Program-made: the position numbers and the translations under genes
Notes under the pieces: model-generated
What the model was told of the DNA's origin: nothing
What the model saw: the letters and a program-made list of their open reading frames with translations, nothing else
Databases searched by the model: none
Shown: piece after piece, positions 38,122 to 58,922 of the stretch
Numbering within the stretch: position 1 is the first letter of the stretch
Layout: every line of letters begins with the position of its first letter
NCBI RefSeq assembly: GCF_055900595.2
Contig: NZ_CM148325.1
Strand: one strand, 5' to 3'
DNA: 64,000 bases

Positions 38122-38144
38122 ATTTAAATGGTGCGATAATAGGA
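38122..38144. repeat. Partial copy of the thrW 3' end: distal att repeat of the thrW-integrated element
   Basis: TTTAAATGGTGCGATAATAGGA matches TTTGAATGGTGCCGATAATAGGA at 58841-58863 (tRNA 3' end plus 6 bp) with 1 mismatch and 1 indel. Confidence 0.75.
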
Positions 38145-38205
38145 ACAATACACATAGGCGATAAGCTTTGTTTTTGTTGCCTTTTTTATTGTTCATTTTT
38201 TATAG

Positions 38206-38227
38206 ATACCCCCAAAAGTACCCCCAT
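38206..38227. repeat. Putative integrase arm-type site (ATACCCCCAAAAGTACCCCCAT), left end of element
   Basis: 22-mer differs by 1 nt from the copy at 58713-58734 near the int start; each holds two TACCCCCA half-sites. Confidence 0.45.
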
Positions 38228-38345
38228 ATCTTTTTCCGCCCCTGAAATTTGGTTGTTATTCATACAGCATATCAGGCGGTAACGCTCTCCCTTTAACCCA
38301 CTTATTGTATGATAGTGCTATCCCACAATAAGGAATCAGCCAGCC

Positions 38346-38705
38346 ATGAGAATGACCAGCCGTAAAAAAGAGATACTCAGTTATTTTGAGCCGGATAACC
38401 TAGAATGGGTGACAGGTGAGATTGGTGCGCCGCCGTTCGATGTGTCGGGCGTGGCCTACCTGCTTCATGGCATGGTGTCGTTCGATAAGCGCCACCAGCT
38501 CGAATCAACCCGGCGCACACTGGAAAGCATGGTTGCTGGTGGACTGCTTGAGCGGGTGACAGTGTATGAATCGCGTCAGGTACGGCGCGGCGGTGAGACT
38601 AACGCAACGGTCGTGCGCTACGGTTTACCCGGTCACTGCGCTGTTATGCGCGATACTGGCGGCGCTGATAACGCAATATCAGGCGAATACATGCGGGTCA
38701 GTTAA
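38346..38705 (+). CDS. Hypothetical protein (119 aa)
   Basis: ORF only; no recognisable motif. Confidence 0.35.
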   Translation: MRMTSRKKEILSYFEPDNLEWVTGEIGAPPFDVSGVAYLLHGMVSFDKRHQLESTRRTLESMVAGGLLERVTVYESRQVRRGGETNATVVRYGLPGHCAVMRDTGGADNAISGEYMRVS

Positions 38706-39240
38706 GAGCCTGCAATCTGTCGTTAATGTTGTTCAGGTCGTAAACCCGGCGTTCAATATCCAGCATCAGGAAATCGTGGATCTCGGCCTGTTCAGGATTA
38801 TCAGACTCTCTGGCCTGTAAGAGCAATTCATTGTAACCATGCAAACCACCCGAATTTTCCGCCGGGGTAGTGCCCTTCCCGCGCAAACAGCTAACAGGCT
38901 GGATACTGGTATCATGTGTTTGCTTCTCCAGCACAACAAGGCAATCCCACCAGTCGCCAAAGTCATACGTGTAAACCAGCTTGTCACCCTCATTCTGGAG
39001 CGCCGCCCATAGTGGCGTGATTGCCGCGTTACCCATGCTTTCATCCTCACCCCATACGCGATACTCGCTACCTGGATCACCTTTACGCCCTTTCTCGAAC
39101 ATATACAGGTGTTCGTCATTCCAGCCAAAAGCTAACTGGATCACGGCATGAAGTTTACTAAAGGGGATTTGCTCTGGAACCAGCACACGCCGCCATATTG
39201 GTGGTTTGCTGTCTCGGATGGTTATCTTTATCTGGTACAT
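38698..39240 (-). CDS. pRiA4b ORF-3-like family protein
   Basis: N-terminus MYQIKITIRDSKPPIWRRVLVPEQIPFSKLHAVIQLAFGWNDEHLYMF is the recalled hallmark of this family. Confidence 0.6.
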   Translation of the reverse strand: MYQIKITIRDSKPPIWRRVLVPEQIPFSKLHAVIQLAFGWNDEHLYMFEKGRKGDPGSEYRVWGEDESMGNAAITPLWAALQNEGDKLVYTYDFGDWWDCLVVLEKQTHDTSIQPVSCLRGKGTTPAENSGGLHGYNELLLQARESDNPEQAEIHDFLMLDIERRVYDLNNINDRLQALN

Positions 39241-39283
39241 GCGTCGTGAACCAATAGTGTACGTTTAGGTGGGTATTTTTCTG

Positions 39284-39718
39284 CTACTGACCAGGATAGA
39301 GCTGATGTGCCGGGTCAAGCCAGACAATATGGAATACATTACCGATGAAAAATCCATGTATGCGACCATATTCATTGCGCGATATGGCAAATTGATAAGG
39401 TGTATAACTCTGAAACTGTTCATTCAAATGCTGAAATCCCTTAGGTTCAGATGTAGTTTGCCAATCAATCGGATGTGACTTCAACGAACCACCGCGATCG
39501 GTGGTGAACTCTCGTTCAGTCATAGTGGAAAGGTCTTTGAGGCGGTCTAACACCTTGCAAAAATAAACAGGATTCTGAGCGCTGAAAGTAAATTTCTCAT
39601 GCGCCGCATCGATATACCGAAAAGAAAAGTTGATGGTCGTTATGCCTGAACCTGTTCCCCCAGGCACTATTTTTGTTTGCGAGGGTGCAATCTTCGACGC
39701 CCTGATTCTTTTCGCCAT
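39284..39718 (-). CDS. Hypothetical protein (144 aa) coupled to the Panacea-domain gene; candidate toxin/effector partner
   Basis: ATG 2 nt after the upstream stop with no SD of its own (translational coupling); no recognisable motif. Confidence 0.5.
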   Translation of the reverse strand: MAKRIRASKIAPSQTKIVPGGTGSGITTINFSFRYIDAAHEKFTFSAQNPVYFCKVLDRLKDLSTMTEREFTTDRGGSLKSHPIDWQTTSEPKGFQHLNEQFQSYTPYQFAISRNEYGRIHGFFIGNVFHIVWLDPAHQLYPGQ

Positions 39719-39720
39719 AT

Positions 39721-40176
39721 TTAGGAAGCCATCGAACGATAAAACTCAGCCGTTACACTTTTATCAATAACATTCTTGCACGGCGCATCTGATGGAACCC
39801 CTTCACGGGCCTCCAGCCACGGCTTTTCTTGGTGCGTCATCTGCTCCAGCTCATAAGCTGTATAACCGCCAAATACCTCATAGATTTCCTTTAGATGCTT
39901 TGACACATTCGCAGGTAACTCAGGGCAGGCAATCTCTTCGTCTATTGAGCGCCATTTGTAATCTGCAAATCTGGTATACAAATCTCTGGCTACAGGGCCA
40001 TGTACCCATGCTTCAAACTTGTCAGCAACCAGTTCTTCGCCATCATTCAGCGCCATGAACCAAGCATCAGCATAGAACACCATTTTTTGCAGTTTCAGCG
40101 GCGTCATAACATCCCCATGCTCTTGAGCAAAGCAAAGCAGGTAATCCGCTACGCTGTTAAGGGTTGTAACTGCCAT
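39721..40176 (-). CDS. Panacea-domain (DUF4065, SocA/GepA-like) protein; putative antitoxin
   Basis: AGGAG SD before ATG at 40176 (MAVTTLNSVADYLL...); LKLQKMVFYADAWFMALNDGEELV...FEAWVHGPV is characteristic of the domain. Longer ORF 39721-40407 is probably upstream read-through. Confidence 0.6.
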   Translation of the reverse strand: MAVTTLNSVADYLLCFAQEHGDVMTPLKLQKMVFYADAWFMALNDGEELVADKFEAWVHGPVARDLYTRFADYKWRSIDEEIACPELPANVSKHLKEIYEVFGGYTAYELEQMTHQEKPWLEAREGVPSDAPCKNVIDKSVTAEFYRSMAS

Positions 40177-40910: not shown

Positions 40911-40942
40911 GCTACGCGCGCGCGTACTTGTCCCGAAATACC
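40911..40942. repeat. Copy 1 of a GC-palindrome motif (GCTACGCGCGCGCGTACTTGTCCCGAAAT)
   Basis: One of three same-orientation copies (with 42303 and 42589); core TACGCGCGCGTA is a perfect palindrome. Confidence 0.5.
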
Positions 40943-40980: not shown

Positions 40981-41262
40981 CTACCTTTGCCTCTTGCCGC
41001 CATTTAACCGGAAGGCGTTACCGTTCGGTTGCGCTATCCCCATGCGGTGTTGCGTTTCGGTAACAGCTTTATGCAGGTCGCCAAATTCCTCAACCTTCAC
41101 GGGCGGGCGCTTCACGTTCTCCAGACACGTTTCACGGCGGCGCTTTATCCATTCCCGATCATCGTCCTCGCTGCATAACAGCATGACTTCCATCCATCGT
41201 GCGGCAGCTCTCCGGTATAGCCCTTTTGACACCAGCTCTTCAGCTTTCCTGTCCCTTATCAT
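40981..41262 (-). CDS. PerC-family transcriptional activator-like protein
   Basis: 93 aa; MIRDRKAEELVSKGLYRRAAARWMEVMLL matches the conserved PerC/Pch N-terminal signature (recalled). Confidence 0.55.
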   Translation of the reverse strand: MIRDRKAEELVSKGLYRRAAARWMEVMLLCSEDDDREWIKRRRETCLENVKRPPVKVEEFGDLHKAVTETQHRMGIAQPNGNAFRLNGGKRQR

Positions 41263-41295
41263 TTCTGCCTCTCAGATTATATAGATAAGCAAAAA

Positions 41296-41420
41296 GGTGT
41301 TGGTTCAGTTGGTTCAGTTGGTTCAATTTGTAAAGATCGTTGTTTTTATTATGTTTTTTCTAAAATATTGAACCAACATCAACTCATTTTGAACCAACAC
41401 AGCCCAGCTCTGAACCAACA
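41296..41420. repeat. Iteron array I: 3 direct + 3 inverted GTTGGTTCA repeats around an AT-rich spacer (origin-like)
   Basis: GGTGTTGGTTCAGTTGGTTCAGTTGGTTCAATTTGTAAAG ... TTGAACCAAC, TTGAACCAACAC, TGAACCAACA; the first 40 nt are the exact reverse complement of 49541-49580. Confidence 0.7.
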
Positions 41421-41521: not shown

Positions 41522-41977
41522 ATGGTCTTTGCAATGAGCAAATCTAATCTGGTCGCGTTCCGCATCCCATCTGAATTGCAGGATGAGTTTAATCGGTCTG
41601 TTCTCGCTTCTGGAGGGGATAAAACCTCCTGGCTTGTTGATGCGATTCGCATGAAGCTGGGACAGCCGGAAAAGTCTATTGATTCACGAATGTTTGGGCT
41701 GGTGGAGCGCATGGAAAAAGCTGCTGCGTCGCTTATTGCCGGAAAGCCGAACATCCCACCAAAGCCATATAACGAAACGGCAGTTATAAAGATCATTGCC
41801 GATACCATCCGACAGGGATTTGATAATGGGCGTGTGATAGCTGAACGGATCAATGAAGCAGGCTATCAAACAAAAGCTGGTAAAGCGTGGGATAAAGATA
41901 TTTACAGCGCGTGGAAGCGTCAGGGAAGCAATGCTGAAAAGTTAAAAGCGGTGATTGATTGTAAGGTCAGCGTATAA
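41522..41977 (+). CDS. Hypothetical protein (151 aa)
   Basis: ORF just downstream of iteron array I; no recognisable motif. Confidence 0.4.
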   Translation: MVFAMSKSNLVAFRIPSELQDEFNRSVLASGGDKTSWLVDAIRMKLGQPEKSIDSRMFGLVERMEKAAASLIAGKPNIPPKPYNETAVIKIIADTIRQGFDNGRVIAERINEAGYQTKAGKAWDKDIYSAWKRQGSNAEKLKAVIDCKVSV

Positions 41978-42056
41978 ACATGAGTGCCCATTGGAAAGCT
42001 GCTTGGGCCAATACCTTTATACACCAGCAGGTGGTGACGATAGGTGAGGATCAGGA

Positions 42057-42278
42057 ATGAAAGGCAGAACGCCACACATTGAACATCAAGCCAACCACTT
42101 CTCGGATGTTCGCAATGAGATGATTGCCATTCGCGGTGATATGCACGGCTTGGAGCGTCGAATTATTGATAAGATTGATGAAAATAGAGATAAGGCCAGT
42201 GAAAATCAAAAGTGGATCATCGGCCTGTTGATTTTATCAATTCTTATCCCGCTACTTATCGCATTGGTCACAAAATGA
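42057..42278 (+). CDS. Small membrane-anchored protein (73 aa), XhlA/holin-like architecture
   Basis: Charged N-terminal helical segment then C-terminal TM helix (WIIGLLILSILIPLLIALV). Confidence 0.4.
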   Translation: MKGRTPHIEHQANHFSDVRNEMIAIRGDMHGLERRIIDKIDENRDKASENQKWIIGLLILSILIPLLIALVTK

Positions 42279-42822: not shown

Positions 42823-43521
42823 TTAATTTGGTGCTTTAGGGTCAACATTAAAAGTTATATCACCTTCTGTATTTTTCCCGGCATAGCTAGCGGCTATTCT
42901 CGCCAACCCTTTGTAATCAGCAATTCCATCAGACTGTTGCGAGACGACTGAGCTACCAACTTTCCATAACATATTAATCTGCCGATTATTGAGATAAGCC
43001 TTGGCATCAAACGACTGGAGTATCACCCCTGCGCCGTAGAACGTGTCCGTCACAGTTGTGTTATACGCGCCAGTAATTCCATAAGTAGGCGTATAAACTG
43101 TTGTTGCCGTTCCAGTGGTATTAGCTGTACCGTAGCCACCACCATAACTATTGAACGTGGTGTTCGAGTTTCCGTACGTTGTTGCTGAGCTCACACCAGT
43201 TTGCCCGTATATTGGGATGGTTACATTACGAGTATTTGAAATGGCCCCGCTTCTCAAAAAGTTCAAGAGAATTACCTGGTCAGCCAATTTTTCATCTTTA
43301 ACTTGTGTATATCCTTGGCTTGATAAACTGGCGGCTACTACCGTAGCTATTTGAGTGTATTCAATCTGTTTGGTGTTCCAAAGTTCTTGGCTTGCGGGGA
43401 TGATCAAGAACTTCTTACCGACAGATTGCCCGGAAGATAAAGCATTGACCGTTACTAACGGTTTTTGTACGCATCCAGCCAATAATGACAGGGATAATAT
43501 TAAAAGAAGATTTTTAATCAT
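42823..43521 (-). CDS. Lipoprotein, Gly/Thr/Asn/Tyr-rich
   Basis: Signal peptide with lipobox (MIKNLLLILSLSLLAGC); low-complexity central region. Confidence 0.6.
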   Translation of the reverse strand: MIKNLLLILSLSLLAGCVQKPLVTVNALSSGQSVGKKFLIIPASQELWNTKQIEYTQIATVVAASLSSQGYTQVKDEKLADQVILLNFLRSGAISNTRNVTIPIYGQTGVSSATTYGNSNTTFNSYGGGYGTANTTGTATTVYTPTYGITGAYNTTVTDTFYGAGVILQSFDAKAYLNNRQINMLWKVGSSVVSQQSDGIADYKGLARIAASYAGKNTEGDITFNVDPKAPN

Positions 43522-43671: not shown

Positions 43672-46398
43672 CTATTCCCATTCGCTAACATCTTTCATGC
43701 CACTGAGGGTAGCTACAATCCCGGCCCTTGTCAGTTTCACGAATTCTTCAGCCCCAACGGCATCACGAATTGCTTTCATGGCAATTTTATTGGCCGAAAA
43801 TCGTTTCTCTGCTGCGGCGATCGCTGCTGGTGATGCCCCTGCGCGCACTGCTTTTGTAGCTTCCTGAACGGCTTTCTCTATCGCATATCGACCACTTCTT
43901 GTCGCCCCAATCTTAGCCACAGCATTTCTTAGCGCGCCACCAGCAACCAAACCACTAATCGAACCAATTACACCACCGCCAAAGCCTCCAGCGATCGCAC
44001 CTGACTGTTGAACACCGTTCATAATCACGCCGACGATCTTTGGAAGGCCTGAATCGAGCGTTTTGAGAGCCTCAGTTGTTCTTCCCGTGCGCTCTACGTA
44101 TCGCTGCGGTCTGGTACTGGCTTTAGCGAGTACACCGAACTCTTTCATCATTCTACCGAGATCTGGCGCATGACGACTGATGGCGTTTACATTCTGCTGG
44201 GTCATGAGCTTGGCAAAATACTGGATACCTGACTCTTCACCGATTCCTCCCTTCTCTCCCTGCGCCACAGCATGCTGAAGAATAGATGCTATTGCAGGTT
44301 GGCGTTCTGCTTCCGGCAGCGCGGAGATAAGACGGTGAAAAGCTCCCGTTCCAGTGTTTGCGGATGCCTTAAGCGTATCGGCACCTTTTCTTACCATAGC
44401 GTCTGATGCGAGATCTCGACCAAAAACAGATTCGGCATTTTGTTTGGCGATAATGTAACTTTTAGAGAGATCGTTAGCTTTCTGCCATTCTGTGAGGAAG
44501 TTTCCTTTTTCAGCCATGATGCGCATGTCATCAGTGATAGCTCTGCGCATTTCTCCGGCAATCCGGGCGGCATTGGCCTTACCTGCCCGGGTGTTTGCTT
44601 GTTCAGCATCAGCAAACTTAGCACGCCATGCCTTCATCCCGTCGAAGGTTATGCCGCCACCTTGGTTGTTGGCAGCCTGAAACTGTTTCATCTCCGGGCT
44701 GAGTGGAACATTGGCTGCTTTTTCTGCTTGGACGACAGCCATTCCATTACTCATTTTCATCCTTTCGCGTGGCATCGTGCTTCGCAGTTCTGCCCATGCC
44801 ATATTCTCTGCTGTTTTCATATCACTGAGGCTCGCGATGATGCGCTCTTTAATTGCTGCGCTTTTTTCTGATGCGCTTCCAGACTCAGCACCGAAATCAG
44901 ACAACTGCTTATTCAACTTTGAGGATATTTCATTGAAGGCCGTAAGGTGAGCATCCTGAACATTCCCAGGAGTTGATGCCAGAACACCTTCTGCTTGGGC
45001 AATTCCACGACTACCTGAGCGCATTCCAGGCGTCAGGGTGTTGATATTAATACCAGTGATTTTCGCCGCCTTAGCGACATCATCTCTGACGTTTGATGCC
45101 TGCGATGCGATATGCTCTCGGCCTACGGCAGAACGCGCTGCTTTCGATACATCATTGGCGGTTTCCAGAGTATTTGCTGCCCCTAACACATGGCCTGATT
45201 GATTTGTATTACTCCGCAATACATCTCGCATTACGTCACTGGCTGTCTGTCCGCTCTTTATTAAAGCGCGTGCTCCTAGCGATCCTGCTAGGCCAATACC
45301 TGTCTCTTTTGCTAGGTCTTCTGGGCTGATCTGCCCGTTCTTTTGGGCGTTCACCAATGTACCTGGCAGGTTTTCTGCCAACATACTAGCCACCTTTGTG
45401 GCCGCACGTTCAGCACGTGGAGCGTTGGCAACTGAAGAAGCTGCGGTAGCTGCCTTTCCTGCACCTAATCCTGTAATAAGGTAAGGTGCTAGCTGCTCAC
45501 CAGCCTGCGCGTATGGATCTGTAGGTTGGTCTACTGGGCGAAAGACAGGTGATATGGGCGTGTATGTGCCATCACCCACACCAAGCTTCTGAGCTGCCCA
45601 TGCTCCGGCTGATTGCGCCGCATTGACTACCCCCACGCCTGCGTCCATTACATCAAACGGTATATTAGCAATCCCTCTGGCCATCTGCTCTGGCGCAGCT
45701 TTCAGTCCTGGCGAAAGATATTCCATCTCAGGATTAAGGTTAGACTTGGCTACTTGCTGCTGCGGTTCCCCGGCATTTTCATCGGCGAGAAACTGAGCTC
45801 TTTTCTGCTCCCATGAACTGGCTGTTGGTAGTCCTGCTTCTATGTTCTTAAATTGCTGACGTTTTGCTTCCCATGCAGAAATATCTCCCACCTGAGAGAT
45901 TTCTTTATCAAGCTCTGAGTAGTCAGGCTGCTGAAGATTGCGATGTTGACTGGTTTGTGCAAACTGCAAGATTTCACTGTCATCAGGGATTATTCCGGCA
46001 TCTGCAAATTTACTTACGTAATTAGCCGTTTCATCTGGCAGTGTAGATTTACCGTTTCTGACGGCATTAATACGAGCATAGCCAGAATTATACCCAGCCA
46101 ATGCCATACCTATATCACCAAATCGCTTCATTCCTTTATTGAGATGGTTTGCTGCGATATCCATTTGCTTTTCAAATGGCAGTGAGCGCGGATCTGTTCC
46201 ACGATAACCAGCATCACTCATTACTGAGGGCATCAGTTGAGCAAATCCTCTAGCTCCTTTCGGTGACTCGGCACTTCCGTTACCACTAGATTCATTGCCA
46301 ACTAATGTTTCCATCGTCCCTGATGGGAAACCATATTTTTCATCGAGATGACGGGAATAGGCTTTCTGTTTTTCTGTCAGTTGTGCCATCATTGCCAT
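43672..46398 (-). CDS. Large protein with N-terminal lytic transglycosylase (SLT) domain; podovirus gp16-like internal virion/ejection protein
   Basis: 908 aa; SLT motifs (GARGFAQLMPSV ... ALAGYNSGYARI) then long helical region and C-terminal hydrophobic segment. Confidence 0.65.
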   Translation of the reverse strand: MAMMAQLTEKQKAYSRHLDEKYGFPSGTMETLVGNESSGNGSAESPKGARGFAQLMPSVMSDAGYRGTDPRSLPFEKQMDIAANHLNKGMKRFGDIGMALAGYNSGYARINAVRNGKSTLPDETANYVSKFADAGIIPDDSEILQFAQTSQHRNLQQPDYSELDKEISQVGDISAWEAKRQQFKNIEAGLPTASSWEQKRAQFLADENAGEPQQQVAKSNLNPEMEYLSPGLKAAPEQMARGIANIPFDVMDAGVGVVNAAQSAGAWAAQKLGVGDGTYTPISPVFRPVDQPTDPYAQAGEQLAPYLITGLGAGKAATAASSVANAPRAERAATKVASMLAENLPGTLVNAQKNGQISPEDLAKETGIGLAGSLGARALIKSGQTASDVMRDVLRSNTNQSGHVLGAANTLETANDVSKAARSAVGREHIASQASNVRDDVAKAAKITGININTLTPGMRSGSRGIAQAEGVLASTPGNVQDAHLTAFNEISSKLNKQLSDFGAESGSASEKSAAIKERIIASLSDMKTAENMAWAELRSTMPRERMKMSNGMAVVQAEKAANVPLSPEMKQFQAANNQGGGITFDGMKAWRAKFADAEQANTRAGKANAARIAGEMRRAITDDMRIMAEKGNFLTEWQKANDLSKSYIIAKQNAESVFGRDLASDAMVRKGADTLKASANTGTGAFHRLISALPEAERQPAIASILQHAVAQGEKGGIGEESGIQYFAKLMTQQNVNAISRHAPDLGRMMKEFGVLAKASTRPQRYVERTGRTTEALKTLDSGLPKIVGVIMNGVQQSGAIAGGFGGGVIGSISGLVAGGALRNAVAKIGATRSGRYAIEKAVQEATKAVRAGASPAAIAAAEKRFSANKIAMKAIRDAVGAEEFVKLTRAGIVATLSGMKDVSEWE

Positions 46399-47708
46399 CC
46401 CTTAAGTTTTGCCTGATAGTAACTTTCCGGCAGATAGCCATGTGCGGTCACATAATCCTTAACCAGTGAAGGATCCTGCAACAGCATTTTGGTATCAGTT
46501 TCTTCGTCCTTAGATTTGGTTACAGGAATACCGAGCCCGGCAATCTGTCGTTTCTGCATTCGAATAATTACGTCCTGCGCTTTATTCAACTCTCGCAAAA
46601 ATGCCTCATTGCTGGTTGCTGACTTAATGCCATTTTGAGATTGCATAAGGGCAGCCCTTTCCCCTTCGGTTGGGTTAGAGCCAAAAGTCCCTTTGAGGCT
46701 AGGCAGAATAACCTTTAGGTTGTATTCATCAGCTTTGGCGCGTAGGCTTCGTGTGTCTTCTGCTACATCAGGAAGGAATCCAAACCCCAGCGTCAGGGGG
46801 TTATAGTTCTGCGAGCGGGTAACGGCCGAAGGATGTTTCCCTACAATTCCCGCCAGTTCATGACCCACTTCAAGCGCAGAGTTCAAGGAGTCGATGTTAC
46901 CTGCAACAGTATTAATTTTATCGTTCATCTTCTCCACTTTCGCCTGCTGTATCTTGCTCAGTTCAGCATTGAGCTTGTCTCTCTCGATGTCATTTTGAGC
47001 ACGTCCAAGTCGTGCTTTCAGAACCATTTCTCTCGTGCGTAGTTGGTTATCGGATAGGACTTTGAACTGCTCCATATCGAGACGTCGATTACCCTGTTCC
47101 GCATTAACCTGAGCATTATATGCGGATGTATCTGCGTTCTGCTGTGCAATGCTCTGCCCTTGCTGCTTCTCTTGAACACTAAAGTAACTATTTGGATCAG
47201 CATGGAGGTGGATGAGGTCAGTGATTCTGTTGAATTCCTGTGGGTCATTCTGCCAAGACTGATAAACCTCTTCAGCAGGAAGACCAAATCGCTGTAATAC
47301 TGGATTTGCCTGCTGAATGGCCTTCTGCATGGTCAGTGGATCTCCAGTTTGTGACGCAAGACGCAGATTCATGGCAGCGTCAGCGGTCTGTCGATTTTGC
47401 TCAGCATCAATGAATCCCATCTGTTTTTGAGAATCAGCCATAAACTGGGGATACTGGGCCATTAACTTCTGCACGCCAACACGATCATTATTAGCTACCG
47501 CACTACCCAACCGTGCCTGATATTCTTTTAACTGCTGGGAAATTTGCGCCTGCTGATTAATCTCAGCAACGCCTCTTAGCCCCTGTAGCGCCATTAAACC
47601 TACGTTTGGCTGCTGCTGATACTGCACAGGCTGAGGAACGGAAGAACGAGGAGCATTATCATTTTGCGGTGCCATGCTAGGCAGCCCGCCAAGTTGCCAT
47701 GTCGCCAT
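46389..47708 (-). CDS. Gln-rich coiled-coil protein (439 aa); gp15-like by size and position
   Basis: Overlaps neighbours by 1-10 bp; no enzymatic motif. Confidence 0.5.
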   Translation of the reverse strand: MATWQLGGLPSMAPQNDNAPRSSVPQPVQYQQQPNVGLMALQGLRGVAEINQQAQISQQLKEYQARLGSAVANNDRVGVQKLMAQYPQFMADSQKQMGFIDAEQNRQTADAAMNLRLASQTGDPLTMQKAIQQANPVLQRFGLPAEEVYQSWQNDPQEFNRITDLIHLHADPNSYFSVQEKQQGQSIAQQNADTSAYNAQVNAEQGNRRLDMEQFKVLSDNQLRTREMVLKARLGRAQNDIERDKLNAELSKIQQAKVEKMNDKINTVAGNIDSLNSALEVGHELAGIVGKHPSAVTRSQNYNPLTLGFGFLPDVAEDTRSLRAKADEYNLKVILPSLKGTFGSNPTEGERAALMQSQNGIKSATSNEAFLRELNKAQDVIIRMQKRQIAGLGIPVTKSKDEETDTKMLLQDPSLVKDYVTAHGYLPESYYQAKLKGWQ

Positions 47709-48385
47709 TAGAATCCAAGCCCCCCAACAAGACCAATAAGCCCACCACCAATAGCGCCGGCCGCAGTTCCTATTCCAGGAACAACGGAACCAAGTTGCGC
47801 ACCCGCTAAAGCGCCTGATGCTGCCCCACCAATACCACGCGCAAGACTGGATGGCTGCTGCGCCTGACCTGCACGAATAGCGCCAAGCCCCTGCAAGAGT
47901 TGTCCGGTATTATTGGCGTAGTTTTGCCCTGCCGTTGCCTGCCCTGATGCCGCATTCATCCCGACATTTAGCAGGTTTCCATAATTTTGCATTTGCCCAC
48001 TGAGCCAATTGTTATAAAGCATGGGCGCAATGGAAGATAACTGGTTACTGGTAGCTGTTGAGCCAAGCCCCCCGGTAGCTTCTGCTGAGACAAGGTTCTG
48101 ATAACGGGCCTGATCTGCCTGTGTTTTATATAAACCAGAACCAAAGAAATCATTCGCGGCTTTATTCTGCCCTTCCAGAGTCATCAGTCCTTGTAGTTGT
48201 TGTAAAGCAGGCAATCCGACTTCTGCATACGGCTTGAGATTATTCATCACCGTATTCCACTGCTCGCGCTGCAAATCAATTGCCTGCTGCTGGGCCTTCG
48301 CCTGAGCTTTAGAGGCACCACCATCACCGCCTTTTTCGTATACGGCACGATTGAGATGTTTATGAGCTATGTGGGTAATTAACAT
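47708..48385 (-). CDS. Protein with C-terminal glycine-zipper membrane segment (225 aa); gp14-like
   Basis: C-terminus GIGGAASGALAGAQLGSVVPGIGTAAGAIGGGLIGLVGGLGF. Confidence 0.5.
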   Translation of the reverse strand: MLITHIAHKHLNRAVYEKGGDGGASKAQAKAQQQAIDLQREQWNTVMNNLKPYAEVGLPALQQLQGLMTLEGQNKAANDFFGSGLYKTQADQARYQNLVSAEATGGLGSTATSNQLSSIAPMLYNNWLSGQMQNYGNLLNVGMNAASGQATAGQNYANNTGQLLQGLGAIRAGQAQQPSSLARGIGGAASGALAGAQLGSVVPGIGTAAGAIGGGLIGLVGGLGF

Positions 48386-48850: not shown

Positions 48851-49018
48851 CCATTTTCACATACAGCCTGCCAGCGCCTTATCTATTAACCCTCGTGCAA
48901 TTTCATGCAGAGTTGGCGCTACTCCAATTCCTGATTTTTTACGCTGCTCTTCCTGAATTTTCTTTATCGCTTCCATTTGCTTCTCACTTATCAATACCGG
49001 CTTTACTGAAATAGCCAT
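48851..49018 (-). CDS. Small protein (55 aa), possible ribbon-helix-helix DNA-binding protein
   Basis: AGGGGG SD then ATG; MAISVKPVLISEKQMEAIKKIQEEQRKKSGIGVAPTLHEIARGLIDKALAGCM. Not in the ORF track because under 60 aa. Confidence 0.35.
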
Positions 49019-49465: not shown

Positions 49466-49580
49466 TGTTGGTTCAAAATACCGTGTTGTTGGTTCAGTGT
49501 TGGTTCAATAAAAAGAATAAAATCCTTATAAAACAATACTCTTTACAAATTGAACCAACTGAACCAACTGAACCAACACC
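49466..49580. repeat. Iteron array II: 3 direct + 3 inverted GTTGGTTCA repeats around an AT-rich spacer, next to the primase gene
   Basis: Same architecture as array I; 49541-49580 is the exact reverse complement of 41296-41335. Confidence 0.7.
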
Positions 49581-52362: not shown

Positions 52363-52717
52363 CGTACCCCACGTGGTCTATAGCGTTTGCGATATGGCTA
52401 ACCAGCATCTGCCACTTGGTTATTCCGTAATCAGTCAGCATGCCATCATTGTTTAGCCACATATCAAATTCAGCGGTTGTCGCAAGTTTCCACTTATCGC
52501 CGTGGGCAGTCCTCATTGCTGGGTACATGAATGCGCAAATCAGATCACAAACATCTGACGGCTTCAGAGATGTAGTAATGATGCGTCCCTCTGGCGTCTG
52601 AATTGCCATTTTCTCTTCACCAGTAGAATGAAGGTTATGAATCCACACAGCACCAGCAATCTTTGCCACCTGCTCTCCGATTGCGGAGCTAAGCGCCATT
52701 TCTGCATTTTCACGCAT
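52346..52717 (-). CDS. Hypothetical protein (123 aa)
   Basis: ORF with overlapping stop/start coupling in a run of small minus-strand genes. Confidence 0.4.
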   Translation of the reverse strand: MRENAEMALSSAIGEQVAKIAGAVWIHNLHSTGEEKMAIQTPEGRIITTSLKPSDVCDLICAFMYPAMRTAHGDKWKLATTAEFDMWLNNDGMLTDYGITKWQMLVSHIANAIDHVGYGDAKH

Positions 52718-53051
52718 GAGAACCTCCCGCTACAGTTGCGCCCATGTCATTAACCATGCTTTGCCATATCTCACGCCCGACGTCAGTCAATCCGTCCTTA
52801 GTGACGCAACGATCAAGAAGCTCGATCCCCACGGTTTCCCACTGCGGGTAGAACACTTTCATGGCTGCCAGTGTGTAGCTATCGATCAGGCTGCGAACGC
52901 CTTTTACTCCATTGACGATTTCCACACGGACGGCCTCGCCGTCCGCATCAACCATGAAATAGTCCCCGCCGCTGGTGGAGGTAATGTGGTTATACAGTGC
53001 CGACGCATACTTATTTGCCAGCGCATTCAGTCGGAAATTTTTAGTAATCAT
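52710..53051 (-). CDS. Hypothetical protein (113 aa)
   Basis: ORF, coupled to neighbours. Confidence 0.4.
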   Translation of the reverse strand: MITKNFRLNALANKYASALYNHITSTSGGDYFMVDADGEAVRVEIVNGVKGVRSLIDSYTLAAMKVFYPQWETVGIELLDRCVTKDGLTDVGREIWQSMVNDMGATVAGGSHA

Positions 53052-53061
53052 GGTTCCATCC

Positions 53062-53664
53062 TCAGTGCGTCACTGGTTCCGCTGGCATGCCGTTTTCATT
53101 CAGTTCAGCTATAAAGCTGTTGTGAAGTTCAGCAAGCGTTTCACGACCAAATGGAGTCAGTGCTCCTTGTTCCACATCCATCATGGCTCTGTAGAAAATG
53201 ATGGCGCGTTCTGTGCCAGACTCGATGCCAAAACGTTCTATCATCGCGCCCTCAATGTTGTTTGCCATAGCGAGGCGCTCTGCTACTGGATACAGCGGCA
53301 TGGCGACGATGCCGTTGGAATAAACAGCCACTTCGGAAGGGTTGCCAGTATCATCAATGATGCTGACAGTGCCGTTTTCCTCTCTCATTTCCAGCATGAA
53401 TACTGTTGCGATCAGCCATCTCCACATAATGACGTTATGCTGTGATGTGTAATCGAAATATCCCTGGTTGCCGCCATCGGCTATAGCGAGATGTATTGAC
53501 ATACCTTCATCTGGTTTATCGTCATAATCCCCGGCATCCAGACGATTTACGGCATCAATATATGAGACGGCCTCAACGCGTTCTGTCATGCCATCGTTGC
53601 TGCGGTACATGATGTTTACGCCGTCAGGCGTTGCTTCTGCATGGAAAGTTAAGAAATTATTCAT
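53062..53664 (-). CDS. Hypothetical acidic protein (~200 aa)
   Basis: Start taken at MNNFLTFHAEAT (GAGGCGA SD); the longer 235-aa ORF overlaps the upstream gene. Confidence 0.4.
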   Translation of the reverse strand: MNNFLTFHAEATPDGVNIMYRSNDGMTERVEAVSYIDAVNRLDAGDYDDKPDEGMSIHLAIADGGNQGYFDYTSQHNVIMWRWLIATVFMLEMREENGTVSIIDDTGNPSEVAVYSNGIVAMPLYPVAERLAMANNIEGAMIERFGIESGTERAIIFYRAMMDVEQGALTPFGRETLAELHNSFIAELNENGMPAEPVTH

Positions 53665-53878
53665 GTTTCGCCTCGCCTGAATGATTCTGTAACTCATATT
53701 TGCCCAACAATTCGTCTGCTTCCTGAATAGCTTCTGGTACGCCATTGAGCAGTGACATAACCGCGCCAATCATTAACTTGTCTCTGTTGCTGGGGCTGGC
53801 CCCTTCAAGCCAGAACCCTAAAACAGTCTGAACCTGTTCGATGCGACATTGTGCTTCAATGAGCTGGATGTTGGTCAT
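53657..53878 (-). CDS. Hypothetical small protein (73 aa)
   Basis: ORF, coupled. Confidence 0.35.
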   Translation of the reverse strand: MTNIQLIEAQCRIEQVQTVLGFWLEGASPSNRDKLMIGAVMSLLNGVPEAIQEADELLGKYELQNHSGEAKHE

Positions 53879-54138
53879 TTCGCACTCTCCGCATCGATTA
53901 AACTGATATCTATCAGAGAGGTAACTTTTTGTAGCCAGCTAGTGATTACTGTCGCCTGTTCCCCTCCCACCGATGGAAGAATCTCATTCATCACATGAAG
54001 CAGACCTGTGCGCGCCCTGGTAAGCCGTTCAGTCGTGCGATCTGCAAGAGTGAATGTGTCTGGATATGGCTCTTCACGGCTCAGCAATGATTCAATTTCC
54101 AGCTCACACGGATGACGATAAATTAAGTTGATATTCAT
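53875..54138 (-). CDS. Hypothetical small protein (87 aa)
   Basis: ORF, coupled. Confidence 0.35.
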   Translation of the reverse strand: MNINLIYRHPCELEIESLLSREEPYPDTFTLADRTTERLTRARTGLLHVMNEILPSVGGEQATVITSWLQKVTSLIDISLIDAESAK

Positions 54139-54329
54139 TTTTCACCACCAAGAATTACCAGCTCTGCACGAGCATCGTTAACCAAAGATGAGCACGCTTT
54201 AATCGCATCCACGACATCAGCAGCGTCCATTTCTTCAGCCGAAAGACTGACAGCAACCAGGACAGCCGCTGCTTGCTCGATTAATTGAAGTGCGGACGTA
54301 AGTCGAGGGGCATTAATTGAGTTATTCAT
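54135..54329 (-). CDS. Hypothetical small protein (~64 aa)
   Basis: Start taken at [10 protein letters not shown]; Ala-rich helical. Confidence 0.3.
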   Translation of the reverse strand: MNNSINAPRLTSALQLIEQAAAVLVAVSLSAEEMDAADVVDAIKACSSLVNDARAELVILGGEK

Positions 54330-55389
54330 TGGTTGCCCCCGTTTTTCCTGGCATTTCGCCACCTTCCAGCAGGAAATGAACGTCACGAACGGCGAGATCC
54401 AATATCGCGAGTAACGCCTTCAGTCTTTCGTCTCGTGAGGGAGAGTTGCTCACCAGAATGTCGTTAATCACTTCTGTCAGTGTGATGATCTGGCTTGTGC
54501 GTTCGAGGGGATCCATATGCACATCGTAGGTTTTAATCATGTGCCACCTCCATGCGGATACGACCAGCAAAAAAGCAGACGTGATCGCGCACCAGAGAAC
54601 GGCGAGCATCGCGTTCAGACTCGGCAGCAATATGATGAATTTTGGCGGTAATTGTCGGGCAATCGCGGCGAACTGCGGCGATAATCCAGATAAATTGCGG
54701 TTTTTGGGTAGGGGTAGTAGCCAGCATGTGGCAGCCTCCTTGTACTGGGAATTCTTCCCACCACCGGAGCTGCGAAACTCGCTGGTGGTGGACTGAACAG
54801 AGTTCGCAGTACCGGCGTACAAGGAAACCGGCCAGCCTTTCGGCTGCCCTGTCCAGCCCACCATAATTTTGCAAGCGACGCGGATTATAACCACATCACT
54901 GAAAAAAGTGTGAGTCTGGCTAACGGCACAAAAAAAGACGCTCGGCGCGTCATGTGTCGCCTCGTACATTTCCGGGCTGCGAAACCCGGCACCCGTTTTA
55001 TGAGGTGCCTTATAACCATAAACCGTGTTGCCGCATAACGGCAAGCTCTTTTTTATGGACTCCGAAAACTCACTATTGGAAGAACCAGAAGCACAGTACA
55101 TCGCGCTCATTTCGTTAACGTCACGCGCGTGGACGAATGTTTTTGTGGAGTCACTACACGAGCGGAAGACATCATCTACGACCAGAAATTTTCTGGCGCA
55201 GCCGCTGACCTTCTCAAGGCTAATATCATCGCCCGAGATTTCTGGTATGGTTAAGGCATCCGTTCCGGCCACCAGCAAATGATAAACTTTGCTTGTATCT
55301 GCTGTATTAATGCCTGACTTTGCCGTCATATTTCTGGATTTTGGCGACATACCAGCCAGTGAAAATGTCTTCTTCTGGATGGGTATCAT
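54322..55389 (-). CDS. Uncertain ORF (355 aa); may be two genes, with an internal start at 54540 behind a strong GGAGGTG SD
   Basis: Continuous frame, but upstream two-thirds is low-complexity and a well-placed SD+ATG at 54540 suggests a separate 73-aa product ([19 protein letters not shown]...). Confidence 0.3.
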
Positions 55390-55565
55390 TGGTTAACCTC
55401 CGCGAACTCCTTCATGAAACGCGCCAGCGGTTGTACGCATGGCGATTGATACCCGTCGCGATAAAACGTCACTCGGTTGTGAGACACGCTTTCGACAGTA
55501 ACGAGTGCTCCGTGGGCATCTTTGTAGCGTTTTTGAGGTTGTGGTGTTCCTGTCGGCTTAAACAT
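55386..55565 (-). CDS. Hypothetical small protein (~59 aa)
   Basis: Start taken at MFKPTGTPQPQ with GGAGG SD; the longer 88-aa ORF overlaps the upstream gene. Confidence 0.35.
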   Translation of the reverse strand: MFKPTGTPQPQKRYKDAHGALVTVESVSHNRVTFYRDGYQSPCVQPLARFMKEFAEVNQ

Positions 55566-56391
55566 GGACCGCCTCCAGACGCTTGGCGAGCCAGCGTTGC
55601 GACAGGCGGGTGAGTTCTCCTTTACGCTGCTCATATTCCATGCCCATATCAATTAACGTGATATTGGTGCTTTCGAGATATGAGAGGTGCTCAAGCTGTT
55701 CTGCGTTCATATGGTCGCGAGGTTCGCCAGAATAGCCATTTATCCGCGCCCACTGTTTAGCAGTTAGCCCACCAAGAACGATACGAGAAATCATATTGCT
55801 CTCGTTTGTGTAGTGGTGTTGCTGCGTCGTTTTACCCATCTCGGCACGGGCCATATTCAGCGCATCGCACATTGGCTTAAAGTTGTTTGCGGCACTGATA
55901 CGGGCTTTTAGCTGGCGACGATAGCGGGCGGCGATTTCAGGCACGCTACGCTGTAATTCTTCCTCGCACTGGATGAAATAACGGCGGATAGCGCGCCCCT
56001 GATCATTGCGTTCGATCATTGCCAGTTCTTTCGCCATTCCGACACTTAACAGATAGTCTTTGCCGGGTCTGCCAGACTGCTTAATCTTGCTGTAAGCCGC
56101 GTCATTCGGGCTTTTCCCCAAATTTGGGGAAATTGTTTTATGGACTGAGTAATCGTGCCCAATGGTGAAGTCATATTCAGAGATGCGATCAGTGATCCAT
56201 GTAGAGAAGTCTTTTCCCACGCCCAACGCTTTGTGTAACGCTTTTGCGCTAACAATATTGGTTTCACGCCCACCGATATGACCAGGAATAACCGGGACAA
56301 TTGCGGCAAATTCATTACCGTTAATTGTGCCCAGAGAGGCGTTCAGATGAGGGGCAGCCTCAGAAATTAATCTGCTTTTTTCGATGTTCAT
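55558..56391 (-). CDS. Phage antirepressor-like protein (AntA/KilAC-type)
   Basis: 277 aa; LHKALGVGKDFSTWITDRISEYDFTIGHDY resembles the AntA N-terminal region (recalled); basic C-terminal helical region. Confidence 0.45.
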   Translation of the reverse strand: MNIEKSRLISEAAPHLNASLGTINGNEFAAIVPVIPGHIGGRETNIVSAKALHKALGVGKDFSTWITDRISEYDFTIGHDYSVHKTISPNLGKSPNDAAYSKIKQSGRPGKDYLLSVGMAKELAMIERNDQGRAIRRYFIQCEEELQRSVPEIAARYRRQLKARISAANNFKPMCDALNMARAEMGKTTQQHHYTNESNMISRIVLGGLTAKQWARINGYSGEPRDHMNAEQLEHLSYLESTNITLIDMGMEYEQRKGELTRLSQRWLAKRLEAVHV

Positions 56392-56403
56392 TTTCAGTCT
56401 CCG

Positions 56404-56835
56404 TTAGGCGGCGTTAAACGCGTCCGGGTAGAGTTTCAGAATGTCGGCAATTTCCTGCTGAGAAAGTCCGTTGTGATCATTTATGTTCGCAAGATGGTTA
56501 ACATGAGTGATCACTTTCAGAACATCACCACGGCAGGAGAAACGGTAGCGAAGGTGTGTTCCGATACCATCAGGATTCTTTTCGTCGATACGCTCCAGAG
56601 TGATTCCAAGCTGGCGTTCTAACTCTGTTGCATAGTTACGACCAGAAGACAGACGGCAGTAGCGAAGAATGTCATTTTCTGTCCATCCCTCTATACCAGT
56701 ACGCAGCATATAGACTCTGGCACGATGCTTTTTCGGTGTGCGCTTTGGTGCTTGAAGGGATTTTGTAAGGGGCGTAACATCAGATACACGAATATCTGAA
56801 TTAGCCGCCTGTAATGGGCGGTTTTTCTTTTCCAT
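56404..56835 (-). CDS. Hypothetical protein (143 aa)
   Basis: ORF between alpA and the antirepressor-like gene; its stop overlaps the alpA start. Confidence 0.4.
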   Translation of the reverse strand: MEKKNRPLQAANSDIRVSDVTPLTKSLQAPKRTPKKHRARVYMLRTGIEGWTENDILRYCRLSSGRNYATELERQLGITLERIDEKNPDGIGTHLRYRFSCRGDVLKVITHVNHLANINDHNGLSQQEIADILKLYPDAFNAA

Positions 56836-57038
56836 CAGGCCACCTCGTCTCTAGATTCTAATATACACTTCTCAATCCATTCATCTATTTCAGACTCAAC
56901 AAAAGCAATTGCCCGACTTCCAATTTTTACCTGTTTAGGGAACCTCCCCTGACTAATAAGACGATAAATCCATGCTTTGCTATAACCAGTTCGCCTTTGA
57001 ACTTCAGAGAGACGAATTAATGAATTGTAATTAGCCAT
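56835..57038 (-). CDS. alpA: AlpA-family phage transcriptional regulator / excisionase-like protein
   Basis: 67 aa; LIRLSEVQRRTGYSKAWIYRLISQGRFPKQVKIGSRAIAFVESEIDEWI is the AlpA HTH signature. Confidence 0.85.
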   Translation of the reverse strand: MANYNSLIRLSEVQRRTGYSKAWIYRLISQGRFPKQVKIGSRAIAFVESEIDEWIEKCILESRDEVA

Positions 57039-57466
57039 TTATTAATATCCTGTACTAATGACGCAATAACCCCCTCCTGCAACGAATGGCGAGAGTTTTA
57101 TTTGCGTCAAATGTCGAATACGCCAAAGACCACAATATGAAAAACATATTGCGGTCTTTTATAAAAGATAGTCAGATTGTTTTGGTTTGTTTGCTCCACA
57201 AGGGTAGAGCTACCCTGCATTTCGGCAGGATCACGCTATTAGGCGTGACATCCAGTAGTTTTAAAGAACAATTGCGCTTTGTCAGCGCCAAAGCCTGTTA
57301 AAGAACATTCCGCTTTGTCAGCGACGTAGAAGGCTCAATACACCTTCGTTTATAAAAGAGCGATTGCCCTTCTCCAGGGCTAACTGTTAAATAGCAATCC
57401 TCTGTGAGTTTTTATCAATCTACTCCCCTATACTTTAGTAAACCTCTGTATACTTGTCCAGTTGTT

Positions 57467-58681
57467 TCATGCGTGTTTTTCAAACACCATATGCACCACA
57501 TTTCCGCCATGCTCGAGAGAATCCATATAGTCGGCATACCATTGAAGCATCTCCCGCCTTCCATCCAGATATTGCGCATGGTTGTATGTGCCACGAATTG
57601 AGTTCTTATCAACGTGAGCGAGCTGCGTTTCTATCCACGCGGTGTTATAGCCCTGCTCATGCAAAATCGTACTCATAGTGTGCCGGAACCCATGACCAGT
57701 TACACGTCCAGCGTAGCCAATGCGCTTAAACACTTGGTTTATGCTGGCCTCGCTCATTGTTTTCCTTGGATCATTGCGCCCGGGAAACATAAGAGGGTAA
57801 TTGCCTGTTATTTCTCTAATCTTCCCAATAAGCGAAAGAGCCTGCTCAGACAATGGCACAATATGAGGCCGCCGCATTTTCATACGTGAAGCGGGTATCT
57901 CCCAGATAGCCTTGTTGAAATCAATTTCATCCCATAATGCGCCACGTAGTTCGCCAGTCCGCAAGCCGGTGATAATCAGTAGACGAGCCGCCATAACAAC
58001 CAATGCGCTTCCTGAGTAACTGGACAATGCCTTGAAAAAATCAGGTAATTCTTTGGCTGTAAGGAAAGGGTAATGATTAGATTCATGGCCTTGCATCGCG
58101 CTAGTAAGGTCTGGTGCAGGGTTATACTCTGCGCGACCAGTGACTATTGCATAGCGGAAAACTTCCCCGCACCGTTGCCTCACTTTTTTGGCTTTTTCTG
58201 TAGCACCGCGCCCCTCGATGCGACGCAGCACATTCAGAAGTTCAAGTGGTTTGATTTCGGCGATGGGTTTTTTGCCAATGTAAGGGAACACATCTTTGTT
58301 GAAGGCTTCGAGGATGTCTGAAGCATAACCAGCAGACCATTTTTTTAATTTGCTGCTGTGCCACTCAAGGGCAATATCTTTGAAGGTGTTGTTTAACTGC
58401 GTTTCCCGGGCAATCTTTTCCTCTCGTTTCGCTTCCATCGGATCGATACCACCAGCGATACCTCTTTTCGCATCTTCACGTTTTGCCCGAGCATCGGCTA
58501 GAGTAACCTCAGGATAAACACCTAGTGCCAATAGCTTCTCTTTACCAGCTACACGATATTTAAGTCGCCAGTATTTACCTCCATTAGGTTTTACCAAGAG
58601 ATACAAACCGCCACCATCGGCCAGCTTGTAAGCCTTCTCTTTTGGCTTGGCTGTGTCTATTTGACGGGCATTGAGTTTCAC
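57467..58681 (-). CDS. int: P4-type tyrosine integrase
   Basis: 404 aa; N-terminal MKLNARQIDTAKPKEKAYKLADGGGLYLLVKPNGGKYWRLKYR; catalytic region HGFRHT...(Y); directly downstream of thrW, same orientation. Confidence 0.9.
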   Translation of the reverse strand: MKLNARQIDTAKPKEKAYKLADGGGLYLLVKPNGGKYWRLKYRVAGKEKLLALGVYPEVTLADARAKREDAKRGIAGGIDPMEAKREEKIARETQLNNTFKDIALEWHSSKLKKWSAGYASDILEAFNKDVFPYIGKKPIAEIKPLELLNVLRRIEGRGATEKAKKVRQRCGEVFRYAIVTGRAEYNPAPDLTSAMQGHESNHYPFLTAKELPDFFKALSSYSGSALVVMAARLLIITGLRTGELRGALWDEIDFNKAIWEIPASRMKMRRPHIVPLSEQALSLIGKIREITGNYPLMFPGRNDPRKTMSEASINQVFKRIGYAGRVTGHGFRHTMSTILHEQGYNTAWIETQLAHVDKNSIRGTYNHAQYLDGRREMLQWYADYMDSLEHGGNVVHMVFEKHA

Positions 58682-58712
58682 TTGGGGGTACCTCCACTAA
58701 ACCGAACAGCAA

Positions 58713-58734
58713 ATACCCCCATAAGTACCCCCAT
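58713..58734. repeat. Putative integrase arm-type site (ATACCCCCATAAGTACCCCCAT), int-proximal end
   Basis: Direct repeat of 38206-38227 (1 mismatch); an inverted GTACCCCCAA copy at 58683-58692. Confidence 0.45.
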
Positions 58735-58846
58735 CTGACCGTAGATTTTGAGGGACTTTAGTAGACGTCAAAAGACGAACGGGGCTTTAATACGCGGATT
58801 ATAAGGGGTTTTGAAAGACTTTAGTAGACTTGGGGAGATGTTTGAA

Positions 58847-58922
58847 TGGTGCCGATAATAGGAGTCGAACCTACGACCTTCGCATTACGAATGCGCTGCT
58901 CTACCAACTGAGCTATATCGGC
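58847..58922 (-). tRNA. thrW: tRNA-Thr (anticodon CGU), thrW; integration site
   Basis: 76-nt minus-strand sequence GCCGATATAGCTCAGTTGGTAGAGCAGCGCATTCGTAATGCG...GGCACCA folds as a cloverleaf with CGT anticodon and CCA end. Confidence 0.9.

Follow-up and report, generated by a model that had tools for sequence, protein, structure and literature searches.

EcCIMP1 is a 19,963-bp phage-inducible chromosomal island (PICI) of the mouse commensal Escherichia coli MP1; it occupies the tRNA-Thr gene that lies between proA and yagU, and TCCTATTATC is the core of its repeats (Pick, Stadel and Raivio, ISME J 2025, PMC11773190; GenBank OR778291). Experiments showed that it excises and circularises only in the presence of the P22-like prophage Kapi1, that excision requires its own integrase and alpA, the latter being the master regulator that Kapi1 induces, and that the island is transduced in helper particles at low frequency (PMC11773190). 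The same study reported that a PerC-like gene of the island represses LEE1 and that EcCIMP1 adds to superinfection immunity against Kapi1 and leaves Kapi1 titres from induced lysogens unchanged; transfer by Kapi1 was too rare for the authors to determine how the island is packaged, and they placed it in an uncertain "Type C" PICI class (PMC11773190). Here we describe a 20,719-bp element inserted in thrW within a 64,000-nucleotide (nt) stretch of contig NZ_CM148325.1 (assembly GCF_055900595.2), which we call the window and to which all coordinates refer. Our comparisons make it very probable that this element, with its P4-type integrase and its insertion at the 3' end of thrW, is a phage-inducible chromosomal island of the EcCIMP1 family, that is, a phage satellite.

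A variant of EcCIMP1 inserted at thrW

By comparing the window with the MP1 chromosome, we found 98.7% identity over 42298-59999 (17.7 kb), 95.9% over 38127-39242 and 95.4% over 40496-41420. Both islands lie at the same locus, thrW by proA, share the att core, have their genes in the same order between int and the pRiA4b ORF-3 gene, and are collinear for int, alpA, the antirepressor gene, the Ash region, the primase gene, the DUF2824 and DNA-transfer genes and the PerC gene. They differ in length (19,963 bp against 20,719 bp here) and in two accessory cassettes that are swapped between them. The stretch 39243-40495, which EcCIMP1 lacks, holds here a gene for a Panacea-domain SocA-like antitoxin (39721..40176, minus strand, in an open frame that reaches 40407) and a 144-residue open reading frame (ORF; 39284..39718, minus strand) whose product, with a weak MAG6450-family match, is the putative toxin partner of the Panacea protein. 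Where EcCIMP1 has a 1.24-kb alpA_1 region, the window has 41421-42297, with two ORFs of 151 and 73 codons (41522..42278, plus strand). The left neighbour also differs, being the vat island in MP1 and a lambdoid-integrase relic with the remnant of a defence reverse transcriptase (DRT) gene here. The kind of island, its locus and its helper-dependent transfer are thus already known, and the element is a variant of a satellite published in 2025. It is found at 99.8% identity in two avian pathogenic strains, and among 5,426 complete E. coli genomes 48 contain 80% or more of it, which agrees with an earlier note on this DNA, made from its letters alone, that had called it a strain-specific occupant of a known hotspot.

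The only tRNA gene that ARAGORN detected in the window is thrW, for tRNA-Thr(CGU) (58847-58922, minus strand); its 3' end, which reads TGGTGCCGATAATAGGA on the plus strand (58847-58863), constitutes attR. The left repeat TTTAAATGGTG-CGATAATAGGA (38123-38144) aligns to TTTGAATGGTGCCGATAATAGGA (58841-58863) with one mismatch and one indel, exactly as had been claimed for 38122-38144, with the qualification that this count includes the 3-4 bases preceding the imperfect copy of the thrW end proper, TGGTG-CGATAATAGGA at 38129-38144. Within these repeats, the att core GATAATAGGA is invariant (38135-38144 and 58854-58863). We delimit attL as 38122..38144, a degenerate copy of the thrW 3' end. Its part at 38129-38144 is one C short of the GCC of the tRNA gene, and the same deletion is seen at the junction of strain 1532MA, where a different element resides. 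The missing C fits either a crossover to the left of the CC with a single-C attP or the inheritance of an old junction.

The chromosome of strain Z0117EC0005 aligned to both flanks, with 99.93% identity over window 33888-38144 and 99.96% over window 58841-64000. In that strain the two alignments share 23 nt, the duplicated att, so that the window corresponds to the Z0117EC0005 chromosome plus a 20,719-bp insertion. Seven genomes also match a reconstructed 454-nt empty site at 100% identity. The same element occurs in strains NGF1, NC101 and MP1 with a different left neighbour (a truncated P4-type integrase gene, the vat island), and homology to the window starts at the identical att core. The element is a discrete insertion in thrW with genuine att duplicates, and the integrative element of about 20.7 kb proposed by the earlier note, together with its suggestion of looking at empty thrW sites in other strains, is borne out. 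The left repeat is indeed a conserved relic, but one that runs on into thrW in the empty-site strains, and its reading as an unrelated conserved sequence was therefore rejected.

P22-type ejection genes and a piece of terS

Between the replicase and PerC genes, we found four minus-strand genes in the P22 order 14-7-20-16, with PHROG E-values of 1e-44 to 1e-121. They encode homologues of P22 gp14 (153 residues, 48379..48840; DUF2824, phrog_651, head morphogenesis) and of the ejection proteins gp7 (225 residues, 47708..48385; phrog_598), gp20 (439 residues, 46389..47708; phrog_917) and gp16 (908 residues, 43672..46398; phrog_770), and a conserved 53-codon ORF (48857..49018, minus strand) stands at the head of this cassette. 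The gene order is that of P22 and other Lederbergvirus phages; the proteins, in contrast, are divergent (23-56% identical to those of P22 over the aligned parts), and the gp16 homologue has an extra domain, an N-terminal SLT lytic transglycosylase domain. Identity to the Kapi1 proteins by blastp was 84% for gp14, 58% for gp7, 26% for gp20 and 25% for gp16, and the nearest phage gp16 proteins (Dewey, Huey, CUS-3 and epsilon34) were 47-52% identical. The candidate cognate prophage, that of strain MB1159, does not have island-like ejection proteins (24-53% identity), and Protein Data Bank sequence searches with the three ejection proteins gave no match. Between the island and EcCIMP1, the ratio of nonsynonymous to synonymous substitution rates (dN/dS) was 0.12 for gp7, 0.11 for gp20 and 0.08 for gp16, compared to 0.15 for the primase, all on small counts; the gp14-like gene gave 0.43, on 5 substitutions. 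By these sequence measures, the cassette is complete and under purifying selection. It is the only set of virion-related genes in the element: the profile scans gave no match there to terminase, portal, scaffold, coat, gp4, gp10, gp26, tailspike or lysis genes. A P22-like prophage (Lederbergvirus) was accordingly discarded as a classification, the element having no terminase, portal, coat or tail genes.

The cassette is present at a coverage of at least 80% in 71 genomes. A second site, yicC-dinD, also holds the same backbone, there combined with a different integrase and with different, likewise intact, gp20 and gp16 alleles, and one Escherichia sp. genome combines the thrW-type integrase with the yicC-type gp20 and gp16 alleles. 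At this second site, E. coli CX05 carries a sister island with a gene (L012, 549-1163) for a 204-residue protein with four predicted membrane helices and 29% identity to P22 SieA. The gene for this SieA homologue comes just after the gp16-like gene and is oppositely oriented, which is the P22 arrangement; in the window that position, just after the cassette, is taken by the gene for a predicted lipoprotein of 232 residues with the lipobox LAGC (42823..43521, minus strand), a candidate exclusion protein for which Pfam gave only non-significant TraT and DUF4136 hints that we did not use as evidence. A shorter derivative of the sister island at yicC-dinD, about 14.7 kb long, was seen in E. coli isolate 23 (L006); it keeps the cassette, PerC and pRiA4b ORF-3 genes and has an Abi-family gene, and it is probably defective, without replicase gene and terS piece. 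Outside Escherichia, an isolated four-ORF cassette of the 14-7-20-16 type lies about 5 kb downstream of the replicase gene in Lelliottia sp. V86_10 (L062, 14115-19116); its last three ORFs have P22/Kapi1 homology, the first was assigned from size and position, and the examined part of the locus gave no match to a needle or other structural gene.

On the strand opposite to the island genes, just upstream of isrK, we found a 107-nt fragment of a P22 gp3-type small-terminase gene (terS; 55135..55241, plus strand), a putative packaging signal. The fragment shares 92% identity with the Bas106 terS gene (nt 268-374) and 86% with P22 gene 3, and it is collinear with gene 3 over nt 268-374, pac included. 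The record of phage g341c, which quotes the P22 sequence, puts the P22-type pac at nt 268-289 of gene 3, so that the homology starts at the first pac base. P22 initiation cuts fall within about 120 bp around pac (PMC11226127), and the captured piece is about the size of this zone. A search for the exact P22 pac 22-mer, allowing up to 3 mismatches, gave no match in the window; the island carries a different allele of the site, which was found by homology. The island 22-mer, GAA[T/G][G/A]TTTTTGTGGAGTCACTA, is kept nearly invariant in eight island variants.

By searching IMG/VR for exact matches to an island 19-mer, we obtained 16 contigs, 13 of them islands and 3 with full-length gp3-type terS genes. 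The EcCIMP1 22-mer is identical at 22 of 22 positions to the terS allele of these three contigs, and the same allele is found in a complete P22-like prophage of the ST131 strain MB1159; the pac-like piece is thus of the MB1159 type in EcCIMP1 and of the Bas106 type here. Moreover, several island polymorphisms in the piece coincide with differences between phage terS alleles. These coincidences suggest that the piece is exchanged with phages and may be kept matched to circulating alleles by recombination. The region of the terS piece is present in 483 of the 5,426 genomes (about 9%), and full gp3-type terS in 257. Among the 54 loci with replicase homologues in other species-level genomes, a gp3-type terS fragment was found in one (Escherichia sp.). 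In Citrobacter sp. NCU1 (L073, 18303-18542), a weak tblastn match to the Sf6/Kapi1-type TerS (80 residues, 35%) lies about 6.6 kb downstream of the replicase gene and could be an island-borne TerS.

Backbone, immunity leader and older occupants of the site

Apart from the cassette and the terS piece, the element, which the earlier note had called P4-like, has a backbone that resembles P4. Immediately downstream of the tRNA gene, as that note had placed it, lies the gene for a P4-type tyrosine integrase (57467..58681, minus strand) with three domains, Arm-DNA-bind_3, Phage_int_M and Phage_integrase, and 42.5% identity to P4 Int. The AlpA-family regulator that had been proposed (67 residues, 56835..57038, minus strand), whose EcCIMP1 counterpart is the master regulator, matched Pfam Phage_AlpA at 8.5e-20. 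The claim of a P4 alpha-like primase-helicase held in part. The protein (919 residues, 49603..52362, minus strand) has Zn_Ribbon_Prim, Toprim_3 and DUF927 domains, and its similarity to P4 alpha, 32%, covers residues 5-339 of alpha only, that is the N-terminal primase; the remainder is DUF927 and not the P4 helicase.

The two iteron arrays noticed earlier consist of 12 perfect copies of TGAACCAAC in two clusters, with none elsewhere in the 64 kb. In cluster A (41299..41419), an AT-rich spacer separates three tandem minus-strand copies from three plus-strand copies at 21-nt spacing; in cluster B (49467..49577), directly 3' of the primase gene, such a spacer lies between three minus-strand copies and three tandem plus-strand copies. 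By analogy with P4 crr and with the ori of Staphylococcus aureus pathogenicity islands (SaPIs) and other PICIs, cluster B is the likely origin, and cluster A would be a second origin lobe comparable to P4 ori. In the P4 record, indeed, crr lies directly 3' of alpha and ori 4.5 kb off, with the same iteron type at both. The two clusters are inverted copies of each other and flank 8 kb of cargo. In cargo-free relatives (among loci L023, L025, L026 and L059) the lobes are adjacent and made of another iteron, GAGACAACA, in 10 copies, and in a Lonsdalea relative (L026) they are 6 kb apart. Both lobes of the cargo-free relatives lie between the replicase and PerC genes. Because the lobes stand side by side there, it seems that cargo is accommodated within the origin region, in a slot that the ejection cassette occupies in the window.

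The replication genes are preceded by what appears to be an RNA-based immunity leader. On the minus strand, Rfam models detected an isrK RNA (54931..55008; RF01394, 69 bits, gathering score 50) and a C4 antisense RNA (54781..54868; RF01695, 81 bits, gathering score 45), after which comes an Icd-like ORF of 64 codons (54533..54727, minus strand). The P4 cI region is similar to this C4/isrK stretch. As in the ImmI region of P1 (c4-icd-ant), an Icd-like ORF comes after the C4 RNA and the two stand first in an operon; unlike in P1, the island leader would precede a replication operon and has isrK upstream of C4. RefSeq annotates here a 355-residue "Ash family protein" (54322-55389, minus strand) that overlaps isrK, the C4 RNA, the Icd-like ORF and the antisense of the terS fragment, and the Pfam Phage_ASH match (residues 124-232 of this ORF) coincides with the RNA genes. 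Since RNA genes lie inside it, the Ash ORF is probably largely non-coding and, at least in part, an annotation artefact. The ejection cassette, the terS/pac fragment and the C4 and isrK RNAs were not mentioned in the earlier note.

The remaining genes are mostly small. Six small conserved ORFs (52346..54386, minus strand) lie between the leader and the primase gene. Further towards alpA, on the minus strand, profile matches identified a DUF4222 protein (55386..55565) and an AntA/AntB-type antirepressor (55558..56391), and an ORF of 143 codons (56404..56835) lies between the antirepressor gene and alpA. At the other end we found a 119-codon ORF conserved in island variants (38346..38705, plus strand), a gene for a pRiA4b ORF-3 family protein (38698..39240, minus strand), which is 93-96% identical in relatives from four loci of three other genera, and the gene for the PerC-family regulator (40981..41262, minus strand), homologous to the LEE1 repressor of EcCIMP1. 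A PADLOC scan of the cargo ORFs gave no match inside the element, the sole match lying in the left flank, and NCBIfam gave weak matches only.

The element stands in tandem with the remains of older islands, as the earlier note had described. Directly to its left, an older occupant has left behind the 3' part of an SfX/HK542-type integrase gene and the attP arm (37911..38121, plus strand); window 38002-38144 matches the integrase 3' end and attP of the thrW-integrating lambdoid phages HK542, SfX and mEp213. In the empty-site strains this remnant abuts thrW directly, and RefSeq labels it in one of them as an integrase without its N-terminus. The same integrase/att relic is found in K-12 at the far end of CP4-6. 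Direct comparison with CP4-6 confirmed that the content differs: the only common parts are IS1, the att relic and thrW-proA, with none in the interior of the element. A second pair of isrK and C4 RNAs (37053-37131 and 37154-37242, plus strand), ahead of a 156-codon ORF, looks like the immunity leader of an older thrW occupant. Further left, the gene at 33950-36949 (plus strand) encodes the defence reverse transcriptase (PADLOC RT_UG5-nitrilase, E = 8e-288). Relative to the 1,069-codon gene of Z0117EC0005, its 5' end (about 148 nt) is lost to an IS1 (33116-33890), and the truncated DRT gene is probably inactive. Compared to strain 1532MA, a block with ykgM/ykgO, ecpRABCDE, ykgJ and yagU is missing between IS1 and the thrW-side relic, and the DRT-containing remnant (window about 33887-38000) occupies the place of this ykgM-yagU block.

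How the island may exploit P22-like phages

The element has the features by which PICIs are generally defined: an integrase, an AlpA-type regulator, a replicase with an adjacent origin, a size of the 10-20 kb order and no structural or lysis genes. Like classical PICIs and SaPIs, it has int, a regulator and a replicase gene with an iteron origin just downstream, and helper induction is known for EcCIMP1; it differs from them in that we found none of the known packaging devices and in the ejection proteins, which are unlinked to satellites in the searched literature. The packaging and capsid-redirection module of PICIs is missing, PHROG and NCBIfam scans having found no TerS of its own, Ppi, Rpp or capsid-size and capsid-morphogenesis proteins. 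We propose that a copy of the pac site might stand in its place. Taking these features together, we tentatively consider that EcCIMP1-type islands hijack P22-like podophages by means of a terS-derived pac copy of about 110 nt recognised by the helper terminase, an ejection set of their own that would replace that of the helper and, in some variants, SieA; we hold this to be possible, at somewhat less than even chances.

Such a cycle would start, as in the experiments on near-identical EcCIMP1, with a P22-like helper inducing alpA, after which AlpA and Int would excise and circularise the island, to be transduced in helper particles. Replication may then be autonomous, the Toprim-DUF927 primase-helicase presumably acting on the two TGAACCAAC clusters laid out like P4 crr and ori, from an operon that would be controlled by the C4/isrK antisense-RNA leader of the P1 ImmI/P4 type. 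The terminase-less island would probably be packaged through the 107-nt copy of the pac region, concatemers of the island being the substrate on which a helper with a gp3-type TerS would start headful packaging. Given the head capacity of P22, a head of this size would be filled by two island units (about 41 kb), so that no capsid remodelling should be needed. The gp14-, gp7-, gp20- and gp16-type proteins of the island presumably load into the capsid built by the helper. More speculatively, the divergent cassette may let island particles inject into SieA-protected cells. SieA acts on gp20 and gp16, and swapped ejection-protein alleles alter SieA sensitivity (PMC10461980); because the island versions of these two targets are only about 25% identical to those of the helper, entry past SieA exclusion appears possible. 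Finally, the superinfection immunity conferred by EcCIMP1 may be due to the genes next to the cassette, for the lipoprotein in the window and for the SieA homologue in sister islands.

Several observations weigh against this proposal. Only 2 of the 54 replicase-homologue loci (Escherichia sp. and Lelliottia) have the ejection cassette, and we accordingly rejected it as a family-wide feature of the primase-defined relatives; cassette and terS piece are lineage-specific additions outside the family core. The unchanged Kapi1 titres in the presence of EcCIMP1 (PMC11773190) weigh against the role given to the ejection proteins. As for the terS piece, its polymorphisms fall at third, first and second codon positions in a ratio of 10/5/5, which is not significant, its 22-mer, set against the pseudo-pac pattern published for P22, differs at 2 of 17 positions in the window and at 1 of 17 in EcCIMP1, and the unusual variability extends beyond the fragment to the entire Ash-DUF4222 region. 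The TerS of Kapi1 is also unrelated to the gp3 type. A pac copy thus cannot explain the transfer observed with Kapi1, the sole proven helper, and the very low rate of that transfer fits a TerS of another type.

The scarcity of cassette and terS piece among primase-defined relatives in other genera would also be expected if a P4-like element had merely captured a dead fragment of a P22-like prophage, whose ejection genes and terS piece were decaying passengers. The location of the cassette in the cargo slot between the iteron lobes, the mere 107 nt of the terS piece and the very inefficient transfer by Kapi1 would agree with such a history. However, all four ejection genes are intact, three of them with primase-like dN/dS values of 0.08-0.12, and the cassette is kept in the 71 genomes and recurs with other integrases and with other intact gp20 and gp16 alleles; the distance to the nearest phage gp16 indicates that the capture is not recent, and the terS piece starts exactly at pac, with a 22-mer conserved in island variants. 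A dead fragment is therefore improbable. A role mainly in defence, in which cassette and pac copy poison or decoy P22-like phages, has a better claim but is still unlikely. Satellites commonly interfere with their helpers. Moreover, the cassette adjoins a gene for a SieA homologue or a lipoprotein, and EcCIMP1 does add to immunity against Kapi1; its lack of effect on Kapi1 titres from induced lysogens nevertheless speaks against interference (PMC11773190), and a gp14-type assembly factor with three ejection proteins exceeds what exclusion would need. Defence and transfer are in any case not mutually exclusive.

Two further readings concern the nature of the element rather than its cargo. Membership of the P4 family, whose satellites shrink the capsid of a P2-like helper and use the P2 cos, draws on real likenesses: the integrase family, the AlpA/Vis-type regulator, the N-terminal primase domain, the C4-type RNA immunity leader, and iterons directly 3' of the replicase gene with a second set kilobases away, as in P4 crr and ori. 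The term "P4-like" of the earlier note therefore stands for the backbone and fails for the exploitation of the helper. In tblastn searches with P4 proteins we found no homologue of psu, sid, delta or epsilon (best E 0.11 or worse, and no PHROG match), and a search gave no P2/P4 cos site within 3 mismatches. Of the core set of P4-like satellites (PMC8628076), the element thus has integrase and alpA and lacks psu, delta, sid and epsilon. It further differs from P4 in the DUF927 helicase part, in being about twice the size of P4, and in its phage-derived genes and helper type, P22-like rather than P2-like, near-identical EcCIMP1 being mobilised by a P22-like podovirus (PMC11773190). We regard family membership as refuted by the missing capsid-hijack genes and cos, and as very improbable overall. 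The earlier note had left the choice between a phage satellite and an integrative mobilisable element. Its first half is supported by the 98.7% identity to EcCIMP1, which is helper-dependent. An element moving by conjugation would share the small size, the integrase and the tRNA-gene site; yet none of the ORFs matched a relaxase, a coupling protein or a type IV secretion gene in the PHROG, NCBIfam and Pfam scans, and transfer of EcCIMP1 is phage-dependent (PMC11773190), which leaves this second half with hardly any credit, even less than membership of the P4 family.

In itself the element is ordinary, being a variant of a published satellite and lying at a tRNA gene well known as a hotspot. 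The pac copy, the ejection cassette with SieA or the lipoprotein, the RNA immunity leader and the split origin, for their part, are absent from the EcCIMP1 paper and from the literature that we searched. In this literature, whose coverage is incomplete, we found no satellite with ejection proteins or SieA, and a hijack of the sort proposed here is described for none. The proposal that EcCIMP1-type islands hijack P22-like podophages would turn the packaging question left open in the EcCIMP1 paper into a concrete prediction, namely that packaging starts from 55135-55241 by P22-like phages with a gp3-type TerS. If it is true, island particles could enter lysogens that exclude the helper, and the island-bearing cell could itself exclude rival phages. 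The island also makes plain that complete sets of phage ejection proteins, in some cases together with SieA, can be satellite cargo, which connects satellites with the arms race over superinfection exclusion; about 9% of complete E. coli genomes have the Ash/pac region of this island family.

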